NCBI RefSeq assembly: GCF_988243305.1 | Contig: NZ_OZ547137.1 | Source: a plasmid | Direction: 5' to 3' (one strand) | DNA length: 64,000 nucleotides | Position numbers: made by a program | Shown: positions 27,001 through 30,000 of the stretch, piece by piece | How the letters are laid out: each line of letters starts with the position of its first letter | Numbering within the stretch: the stretch's first letter is position 1

Positions 27001-30000
27001 CTTTTGTACCCATAGGGATCAGAGTATTTGCGGTATTATCAAAATCCGGCTGTGTCAGGCACTCCTTCCACAAATCCCAGGCGGCACAGCGGGCATCCAG
27101 CGGATTCAGGATTTTATCGATGGAGGGATCATAGTAACTTTTAACAAATTCCCCTGAACGGTCATAAATCACCACCATATCACCGCGCTGACGGGCATAG
27201 TTGGCCAGACGACGGATAACCTCCGACTTACCGGCCCCGACCGTGCCGTGCAGACAGAAGTTCTGGATTTCGGAATCCCGGATAATCGGCAGGTCGCCAA
27301 TCCGGATATCGGAGTCCTTGCCGTCTTTTTTCAGCATCCGGGCAACGTCTTTCGGATTGTCTGTCAGTTGACGACCACCTGTGACTTCATTTTCGCTCTG
27401 TTGTTTACCCTGACGCCCCAGAATCCAGGAGACAACAAAGAAGGTGATCAGGCAAATAACCAGTGCCACAACTGTGGCCAGAACGAATGCGGACCATAGC
27501 TGCTCTCCGCACCAGATCATATATTTATCATGCAGTACCTGGGCAGCGTTCATCCGGAAGGTTTTGCCGTAATACTGGATCTCATATACTGGCTGGGACT
27601 TGATTAAATCCCGCATGCCTTCCAGCGTGGTACACCACCAGTAAATACAGCCGTTCACAAACGTCTGCCAGCTTATTTTTACCCATAAAACCAGACCAAC
27701 GAGAATCCAGAAAAAAATAAACAGGCAGTAAAGCATGATATTGGCGATCTGGCTGAACATGCGGATACGCATGGACGCAATCTGACCGCCCTGGGTCATA
27801 TCCTTTGCGTTAAAACTCATGATGATATTCCGAAGAAAAAAAGTCAGTCGGACTGATTATTAATGATGAAAAGATTAATAACCGTTAAATTCCGGCTTCG
27901 CCGGCAACACTTCACGGTCGCACAAAGAATTTGCACAACCGCTCAGTGTTTTCATATTTATTTCGAAAACGCCGGGGAGAAATAAAATTTATTTTATTTC
28001 TTTCCGGGGTTGGACAACGAGCAAAGCGAGGCGTCAGTCAGGAGGCCAGCAGGACTGGCCCGGATAATTTTCTTGATGTCATTAAAGTTAATAAATAAAG
28101 ATCAGCTATTTACCGTCATAAGCATCCATATTTGATCAACACCTGATGAATCTTGATCAACAGCAACTGGCTCAATTGAAAGTGACCATATTTCTTTACC
28201 ATTGACAATACAGGAAAAATCATCAAAGAAATAATCTTTATTTACATACTCATCCAGTTTTTCTGTTTGAAATCTATACGCAATCTTTTGTTTTTCAAAG
28301 CTCTGATAAGAATCCCTGAATGCTTCATATGCTCCGAAATGAGCATACAATCCCATATCACGAAAGGCTTTAGCAACTTTATAGCCGGATTCAATAAAAG
28401 TATCAGAGGTGAATTTCTTAATTCGTCTCTGCCCTCCACTTATAGCACATAAATTTTCCACATTCACTGATGGTGCCGCTACTTGTTTATCAACAAACAG
28501 AGCCGGAGTATATAGGAAATACGTATCAGAACCGCCAGTACGGGTAATATAGTTATAATTCTCATTATGAATGTTATACATTACCTGGTCGGACAAAAAT
28601 TCTCTTATATGTTTATTCTTATATTTATATAAAGTTCCTTCAGATACTTGTGTACTTATGCATCCCTGAATGAGGAAACAAATTGATAACATTATGCATT
28701 TTCTGATTAACACGACTGCCCCCTTTATTCCATAATAGGGATTTTATATGAGACTGGTACAGCTTTATCCAGTCTCATCCTAAATTACAATATATTAGCA
28801 ATTGATTTGGCCAGCTGGTCTTCGAGAACAGGCTTCGCCTCTTCAAATTTCAGGTTAACCTTGTTCGCATTTGAGACCACACGGGTCTGATATTTATGCT
28901 GGTTACCTGTTTCAGTACTGGTCTGAATTTTCGCACCTGATGTGCCCTGACGAAGAGCGGCAACATTATCCGTTGTCACCGTTGACTTAGTACGCTCTGC
29001 AATCTGCACATCCGTGATCATGGTATAGTTCACATCTTCCACCATCGCATCTGCAGCCATACCCACCAGACCAGCAGCAAGGCCCACACCGAGTGTGGCA
29101 CCGGCAGAATTGGAGTTATATCCGGTGATACCAGCACCTAACGCGGCACCAACTGCTGCGCCTTCATAACCACGGTTCAGCCATCCCTGAGACTCCCGCA
29201 GATCCATCTTATCGGCCTTCAGCACATTCGCCTGAATCCAGTAGTAGGCTTTATCCGGAGAAGTCACCACCTGATACCCTTTTGCTTTCACAGCATCAGC
29301 AATTTTGCCCTGCAGCCCACTCATGTCTTTATCAGACGTGTTTTTGATTTGCAGAAATACCGTGCGTTCGCTGGCGGGTTCAAGCCAGATGGTCTCACTC
29401 ATCTGAGTCTTCACCTCAAGATTACGCTTCTTGATTGCCGTGCTCATCGCACCACACCCTGAAAGGGCCAGAGTGGAACTGACCAGTGCAACCATCATCA
29501 ATTTTTTCATTTTCATCAATGTTCCTTCATATTGAATAAAACGTCATAATATACAAATTAAGATTCACTCACCATATCGTTTTGAACTATAACCATATGA
29601 ATTACCACCGATATCCACACCAATACCTGACATAGGTAACCCTGTTGCAGGATTAGTACGATGAAAATCCATATTATCAAAATCCAGATGCAAATCTTCA
29701 TTAGTTTGTTCATTTACCTGAGATTGCATCCATTCTCTTACACTTACACAACCACTAACTCGCCTTAATTCGTATAGTGTACCAATGATAAAAACCATCA
29801 GGCTTAATAATGGAGAGAGTAAGGAAGATACTGGCATCGTTATATACCAAACGCCTTTACTAAACTTAAACTCATCCGACACATTCCGTTTTTTTCGTAT
29901 TTGAGAGAACAACCATATAAACAGTCCCTGCCATAGTACTATGAAGAACAGCATAAAAATTGTTTCGGCATTCCCCCAACCAGCCAGATAACAGGCGATA

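Follow-up and report, generated by a model that had tools for sequence, protein, structure and literature searches.

A lipoprotein gene inserted between traT and traD of F-like plasmids as a candidate accessory exclusion factor

A 64,000-nucleotide (nt) stretch of plasmid DNA (NCBI RefSeq assembly GCF_988243305.1, contig NZ_OZ547137.1; hereafter the window) carries, between traT and traD of an F-like transfer region, an open reading frame (ORF) of 203 amino acids (aa) that lies on the minus strand (28102..28713), starts with GTG and encodes a prolipoprotein of an unnamed family, which we call ORF X, or X for short. F-like exclusion has been described since the 1970s as a two-gene system, TraS and TraT. 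We propose for X the role of an accessory exclusion lipoprotein of the F type, probably directed against TraG of the donor, and give this reading, built from sequence comparisons, a probability of about 45%. The first-pass annotation of this DNA had guessed at an envelope role, be it in exclusion or in resistance to phage or serum; the position of X in the block of exclusion genes, its exchange with a TraS-type cassette and its co-variation with a segment of TraG favored the first part of this guess, while the second part found no support, with neither a PADLOC or PHROG match nor a phage homologue of X pointing to phage or serum resistance.

The ORF and its lipoprotein-type signal, both claimed by the first-pass annotation, were confirmed, the N-terminus of X (MLIRKCIMLSICFLIQGC) matching a PROSITE-type lipoprotein pattern. 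Two basic residues, R4 and K5, precede a hydrophobic core (MLSICF) and the lipobox L-I-Q-G-C18, with signal peptide and lipobox together occupying residues 1-18 (28660..28713, minus strand) and forming the sole hydrophobic segment of X in a hydropathy scan. A regular-expression check on all family members found the lipobox in every sequence with a called N-terminus, down to 24% identity; of the six sequences that lacked it, one has a long N-terminal extension and five are fragments or truncated gene calls. The motif QGC(I/V)(S/T)T was kept in homologues of 51-82% identity. Residue +2 after C18 is Ile in X and is Asp in no sequence of the family, for which reason sorting to the outer membrane is predicted by the +2 rule. 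Cys89 (28447..28449, minus strand) and Cys168 (28210..28212, minus strand) are invariant across 13 sequences that reach down to 22% identity, and because both are invariant we surmise that they probably form a periplasmic disulfide. The AlphaFold2 (AF2) model of X had a predicted local distance difference test score (pLDDT) of 82 and a predicted template modelling score (pTM) of 0.73.

A strong Shine-Dalgarno sequence, AAAGGGGG (28719..28726, minus strand), lies 5 nt upstream of the GTG, and both elements are conserved in four other loci of the E. coli clade, with AGGAGG taking the place of this Shine-Dalgarno in Salmonella pSCD1. The ratio of nonsynonymous to synonymous substitution rates (dN/dS) was 0.11-0.22 over the whole gene versus eight homologues, and 0.04-0.42 in the same eight comparisons for the first 44 codons, which RefSeq usually leaves off. 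X is thus a real gene under purifying selection, N-terminal 44 codons included, and was intact in 18 of the 19 loci inspected. In RefSeq the Prokaryotic Genome Annotation Pipeline (PGAP) mostly starts X at Met45, giving a 159-aa product devoid of a signal peptide (RefSeq records WP_001473214.1, WP_089627864.1, WP_079975228.1 and WP_001355324.1), and the full 203-aa call appears in few records (WP_232520941.1, WP_000908448.1). The Met45 call misplaces the start systematically and so conceals the envelope location; as it removes the signal peptide, automated pipelines cannot recognize X as an envelope protein. In locus L005, where X is called as 159 aa only, the in-frame upstream sequence reads MKKIMIMAYSFLLQGC, with the lipobox present.

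Two further claims of the first-pass annotation, an AT-rich segment and extra DNA between traT and traD as compared with F, agreed with our measurements: GC content was 0.31-0.39 over 28100-28800 vs. 0.47-0.56 in traT and traD, and the traT-traD interval spans 964 bp here vs. 252 bp in F. Alignment with F together with the GC profile delimits an AT-rich insertion of ~720 bp (about 28065..28784) that begins directly after the stop codon of traT and ends just before a backbone hairpin, GGCCAG-N5-CTGGCC (28044..28060, minus strand), which stands right after traT in F and after X here. The hairpin previously noted between X and traD does exist, as the inverted repeat gaaataaaat tt attttatttc at 27979..28000, but it is no feature of the insertion: being identical in F, it belongs to the conserved backbone outside it. 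Within the insertion, a separate hairpin (28748..28778, minus strand) lies between the stop of traT and X, with a 10-bp stem, no U-tract, a folding energy of -26.5 kcal/mol and z = -3.1; its pairing is maintained in Salmonella pSCD1 by two compensatory base-pair changes, and terminator prediction did not call it. Neither a promoter-like site nor a terminator of its own was found for X on the coding strand. The position of X, behind traT and ahead of the hairpin by which traT is followed in F, and the negative promoter search make co-transcription with traT probable; the expression of traT is independent of the main tra promoter.

X had no match in the family and structure databases searched. 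Pfam returned no family at E <= 1, TraS (PF10624) and TraT (PF05818) included; NCBIfam returned no family and a single lipoprotein signal-peptide match far below threshold; PHROGs and PADLOC profiles gave noise only, with no significant match; the PDB gave profile hits at E > 0.7 only and no match by fold; and neither sequence nor fold comparison revealed a phage homologue. X is uncharacterised, as every annotated record names it 'hypothetical protein' and full-text literature searches found no mention of ORF X. The family numbers 7 members in 5.8 billion proteins, or 15 using a profile, and 13 among 1.84 billion cluster representatives searched exhaustively. X was found in 86 of 72,556 PLSDB plasmids, and a comparison of the traT-traD interval showed the full insertion in 77 of 3,992 plasmids with matching flanks; with ~2% of F-like plasmids having X, we consider it an accessory gene that recurs, not an isolated case. 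Among 5,426 complete E. coli genomes, 93 harbored X in 94 copies, all of them plasmid-borne and none chromosomal, and among 100,044 species genomes a single X locus turned up, on a K. pneumoniae plasmid scaffold, with no new context. The X family is small, unnamed and restricted to conjugative or mobilisable elements.

Genomic contexts were read only where flanking DNA sufficed to show the neighbours. All close homologues of X (48-99% identity) lie within the traG-traD block of F-like transfer operons, in five arrangements: 1) traS-traT-X-traD in the window, pO86A1 and others, with nine loci besides the window (E. coli, E. albertii, Shigella and Salmonella); 2) traG-[antisense YbjQ-like ORF]-traT-X-traD, devoid of traS, in L006 and in Salmonella pB-4548_1 and pSCD1; 3) traS-X-traT in L005; 4) traG-X-traT, again devoid of traS, in L003, L004 and Providencia alcalifaciens p2939_90_3; and 5) traG-traS-like-X-traR...traD, devoid of traT, in L013 and P. 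rettgeri, the slot proteins of which are polytopic and carry an R100-type C-terminal NP..G..M...GGN motif. Exclusion factors are encoded inside or beside the transfer genes of the element that they protect, and X lies in this block on five F-like backbones. Because traS is replaced or absent in some of these plasmids, X is the sole candidate entry-exclusion factor there.

Regarding the second arrangement, the traS slot of L006 (6740-7108), L030 and L031 (3940-4251) holds no traS and an antisense ORF of 103-122 aa that is weakly YbjQ-like (PF01906, E = 3e-4, under the curated cut-off). The plasmids with this slot ORF are Salmonella IncFIB/FII plasmids, namely pB-4548_1 (S. Gallinarum), the traG of which contains an internal stop codon, and pSCD1 (S. 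Bovismorbificans).

The traG-to-traD region of L003 has ~93% DNA identity to that of the E. coli IncFIA plasmid p3_STEC346, and between the two there is a clean replacement, with precise junctions, that runs from the end of traG to ~70 bp upstream of traT: p3_STEC346 encodes in this slot a polytopic TraS-type protein of 215 aa that ends in NPATGLPMLGGIDVGGN, a motif as in the TraS of the window, and L003 has X in its place, with L004 arranged likewise. Homology between X and the TraS-type cassette it replaces was rejected at an hhalign probability of 0.15%. For F and R100, residues 610-673 of TraG determine the specificity of TraS, according to PMC9797247, which cites Audette et al. 2007. TraG of p3_STEC346 matches that of L003 and L004 at 95-100% identity except for residues ~620-680 (55-65%) and part of the C-terminus, and in the IncFIA backbone each class of slot cassette (S215/216, S303 and X) comes with its own variant of TraG 620-680. 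S215 and S216 share 86% identity, vs. 90-95% for the TraG segments that go with them; S303 has 26-28% identity to S215/S216, with TraG segments at 50-75%; and the TraG segments of L003 and L004, both X-bearing, are 90-100% identical to each other. This co-variation was read from five plasmids, two of them X-bearing and three TraS-bearing. Residues 841-900 of TraG, between the segment and the slot, differ between L003 and L004, each resembling a different TraS-bearing plasmid, and X and its type of segment have therefore been kept together across an intervening recombination. The tip of TraN served as a control: it differs between L003 and p3_STEC346, and since X-bearing L004 shares the TraN type of TraS-bearing p3_STEC346, X appears to track the TraG segment and not TraN in this backbone.

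The TraN tip and the slot proteins deserve comment of their own. Between L003 (167-1987) and L029 (2073-4007) the tip, at residues ~150-345, is 6-40% identical in proteins of 606 vs. 644 aa, and such divergence between transfer regions of ~93% identity reads as modular exchange of the recipient-recognition domain. The proteins in the TraS slot (L025 3103-3750, L027 4624-5535, L028 4657-5307, L013 3079-3615 and L020 5436-5978), of IncFIA and Providencia type, are polytopic and share with the TraS of the window a terminal NP(A/S)(T/S)G(L/I/Y)PM...D..GN motif, of which the 303-aa variant has two copies. The Pfam model of TraS missed both slot proteins that were scanned with it (the Providencia-type L013 and L020), and RefSeq names all slot proteins hypothetical; this motif could be a better marker of this class of TraS.

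A second independent hint at exclusion comes from what appears to be complementary decay. In three Salmonella-type plasmids that lack traS, X is intact and the TraG segment is F-like. The sibling plasmid pHL21A encodes a canonical TraS, and its X is broken by a C18R substitution and a stop at codon 28; its TraG is 99% identical to that of the siblings outside of the variable segment, and the segment resembles that of the window, not that of F. The joint retention of traS, traT and X in a Shigella plasmid devoid of traG and traD also speaks for the exclusion reading.

Variation inside X is also unevenly spread. Residues 96-160 (28234..28428, minus strand) are always the most divergent part, with identities of 34-58% vs. 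57-94% in the flanks and dN/dS (omega) of 0.15-0.41 vs. 0.02-0.25, and this hypervariable middle largely overlaps the low-confidence stretch of the model at residues 101-140 (block mean pLDDT 61-69). A variable module on a conserved scaffold is the layout expected of an exclusion protein that bears specificity, and we regard residues 96-160 as the candidate specificity module.

Taking these data together, we surmise that X would be exported by its Sec/signal peptidase II (SPII) signal to a predicted outer-membrane anchor, exposing an alpha/beta domain of ~185 aa with the probable Cys89-Cys168 disulfide. It would act in the plasmid-bearing cell when this cell is approached as a recipient, lowering the entry of related plasmids. 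Its most probable target would be the variable periplasmic segment of donor TraG, the one that TraS recognizes, with the hypervariable middle of X intercepting this segment in the recipient envelope. As X in the window supplements an intact TraS and an intact TraT, it may add a second exclusion specificity.

How X compares with known exclusion systems bears on this proposal. With TraS, the R100-type variants of which lie outside the PF10624 model, it shares the traG-traD locus and a low GC content, the two cassettes are interchangeable in the IncFIA backbone, and each TraS or X cassette appears there to go with its own variant of TraG ~610-680; TraS differs in being polytopic, with 3-5 hydrophobic segments in the inner membrane, whereas X is predicted to consist of a lipoprotein signal that is cleaved off and a soluble domain, and X, which has no sequence similarity to TraS, is far better conserved between backbones. 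TraT and X are both lipoproteins with a predicted outer-membrane destination, well conserved between backbones, adjacent to each other and retained together in decayed tra regions; they differ in having no sequence similarity, and X occurs on plasmids devoid of traT, just as traT occurs on most plasmids devoid of X. Small lipoproteins of ~60-70 aa serve as entry-exclusion factors elsewhere, namely TrbK of RP4 and pKPC_UVA01 and Eex of pKM101 and R388, but these belong to another class of secretion system and do not target an F-type TraG, and X has no Pfam family. Such small lipoproteins of P-type systems block entry of DNA into recipients, a case of exclusion not dependent on a polytopic membrane protein (PMC8923210). 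Sfx of IncC/IncA is a surface-exclusion lipoprotein of 286 aa that is found in membrane fractions, has its specificity set by TraN and is also present on integrative mobilisable elements (PMC11493245). It lends the proposal a precedent: like X, this lipoprotein has no relation to TraS or TraT, is encoded beside a mating-pair gene and occurs on integrative mobilisable elements, X doing so through a distant homologue next to the integrase of a Dickeya mobilisable island that also has a MobA relaxase; unlike X, it follows TraN, at least as judged in the sole backbone in which this could be tested for X. Homology with Sfx was also rejected: the profile of X against SfxRA1 gave an hhalign probability of 5%, confined to the signal peptide.

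Several observations weigh against TraG-directed exclusion. X is 51-67% identical where TraG is ~40% identical and where the TraS-type cassettes of a single backbone are 26-39%, a degree of conservation that would be unexpected for a reader of a fast-evolving loop and that looks more TraT-like than TraS-like. Intact TraS and TraT are already on the plasmid of the window; the predicted anchor of X is in the outer membrane vs. the inner membrane for TraS; and in some plasmids (L013, P. rettgeri) X occupies the position of traT. The co-variation comes from few plasmids (two X-bearing, three TraS-bearing), and physical linkage could contribute to it, as no more than ~1 kb separates the TraG segment from the slot. 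In Providencia X diverges in step with the backbone and not with the TraG segment, and X alleles of 82% identity accompany both F-type and R100-type segments. An AF2 model of X fused via a linker to TraG 598-688 showed no docking, although a pLDDT of 22-31 in the TraG part makes this model uninformative. Finally, distant homologues of X (24-38% identity, the Dickeya one included) lie outside tra operons: one adjoins traM on an F-like plasmid, one adjoins ccdB, and one is among unknown genes on a large Photobacterium plasmid. Because of these points, two other explanations of X stay serious.

In the first of these, X would be a surface-exclusion factor like TraT or Sfx, an outer-membrane lipoprotein that destabilizes mating pairs and draws its specificity from donor TraN or from the contact with the recipient porin, not from TraG. 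The predicted outer-membrane sorting, with Asp never at +2, the traT position of X where traT is absent (L013 and P. rettgeri), a conservation that resembles that of TraT, and the precedent of Sfx, itself a lipoprotein in membrane fractions and on mobilisable islands with a specificity determined by TraN, would all fit. We nevertheless hold this to be rather improbable, given that the IncFIA backbone has exchanged its TraS cassette, and not traT, for X, that X does not co-vary with the TraN tip and that it is unrelated in sequence both to Sfx (the hhalign match of 5% covering the signal peptide only) and to TraT (no Pfam match).

Of comparably low probability is the second explanation, that X is envelope cargo unrelated to conjugation, conferring resistance to phage, colicin, serum or predators from a permissive and constitutively transcribed spot beside traT. 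Resistance to serum and phage is among the secondary roles of TraT, TraS and TraT are already at hand in the window, and the distant homologues reside outside tra operons. In the Shigella dysenteriae E670/74 plasmid (L038, NZ_CP027028.1 80017-85625), moreover, IS630 stands in the place of traG and no traD is annotated, and the block traS-traT-X is intact despite the loss of both, in a plasmid no longer able to conjugate. Against cargo stand the independent placement of X at >=4 positions (that is, at least four), always within the traG-traD exclusion block and on five divergent backbones, the precise swap with TraS cassettes together with the co-variation of the TraG segment, and the negative PADLOC, PHROG and phage searches.

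It is quite unlikely that X serves the F-type secretion system as an accessory in the donor, for instance by partnering TraG or TraN in the periplasm during mating-pair stabilisation. This would suit a gene in the tra operon directly after or near traG and a periplasmic or outer-membrane lipoprotein like TraV, but X is present in only ~2% of F-like plasmids, occurs on the Dickeya island and in the decayed Shigella tra region, with no secretion-system genes in the flanks examined, and is interchangeable with TraS, a recipient-acting protein. Scarcely credible is the view that X is a decaying or non-functional ORF and the 159-aa cytoplasmic RefSeq product from Met45 the real one, for although PGAP usually begins at Met45 and the N-terminus is broken in one plasmid, this is countered by the low dN/dS of the first 44 codons (0.04-0.42 in eight comparisons), the conserved GTG and Shine-Dalgarno, a lipobox kept down to 24% identity and present in frame upstream of the 159-aa call in L005, and the intact gene in 18 of 19 loci.

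TraG-directed exclusion by X, if true, would have wider consequences. Resistance and virulence genes of Enterobacteriaceae travel mainly on F-like plasmids, and a third, unrelated exclusion protein able to substitute for TraS would change the prediction of exclusion groups from sequence, would help to explain plasmids that apparently lack traS and would allow plasmids with both TraS and X to gain a second specificity against a different type of TraG and so to exclude more rivals. Were X even to replace TraS fully, entry exclusion of the F type could be exerted by a soluble domain tethered in the periplasm or at the outer membrane of the recipient and not by an inner-membrane protein, and the variable loop of donor TraG would be exposed in the recipient envelope before it arrives at the inner membrane. 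X would also provide a soluble, structurally tractable partner with which to probe where and how the recipient senses donor TraG. The stronger claim, that X is the founder of a new family of TraG-directed entry-exclusion proteins able to fully replace TraS in F-type systems, seems doubtful to us on present comparisons.

Around X, the neighbours in the window are all on the minus strand. Immediately upstream is traT (28785..29519), encoding a surface exclusion lipoprotein 99% identical to F TraT, followed by traS for entry exclusion (29565..30050; PF10624, E = 1.5e-94), the product of which has three hydrophobic segments in a hydropathy scan and a C-terminal NPATGLPM...GGN motif. This traS allele is present in >1,000 plasmids, and X is for that reason not tied to it. 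Farther upstream, traG (30066..32888) encodes the mating-pair stabilisation protein that is the donor-side target of entry exclusion; its TraS-specificity segment, residues 610-673 (30870..31061), is 50% identical to the F type, vs. 98% for the remainder of the protein. Downstream of X lies traD (25631..27820), encoding the coupling protein.

A few observations concern relatives of X and of its neighbours. TraS of L038, the Shigella plasmid, has a C-terminal half unlike the allele of the window. On the Dickeya chromosomal island (L016 8476-12023; L018 5684-9530) the gene order is integrase, X homologue (27% identity), a PilV/shufflon-N-like protein, a small TraD-like protein, MobA relaxase and a type I restriction-modification system, and from this content it looks like an integrative mobilisable element with an exclusion-type lipoprotein. 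P0016, a protein of 1,795 aa, weakly matches residues 50-108 of X in four separate stretches (E = 1e-4) and may contain a repeated X-like N-terminal motif.

Beyond traD, traI (21324-25631 region) is cut off after residue 1435, with the TraI_C domain missing, and the break adjoins a Tn21-like transposon (features within 11308-21347) that comprises a Tn3-family tnpA (18381-21347), a resolvase gene (17817-18377), an integron-type integrase gene (16075-17088), aadA (14525-15313) and a sul1-like pterin-binding gene (11308-12123). Judging from this gene content, the plasmid of the window may not be self-transmissible, though its exclusion genes are intact. The C-terminal region of TraD contains six QQP repeats in a run (25916-26000), which give rise to a spurious peptide on the opposite strand.

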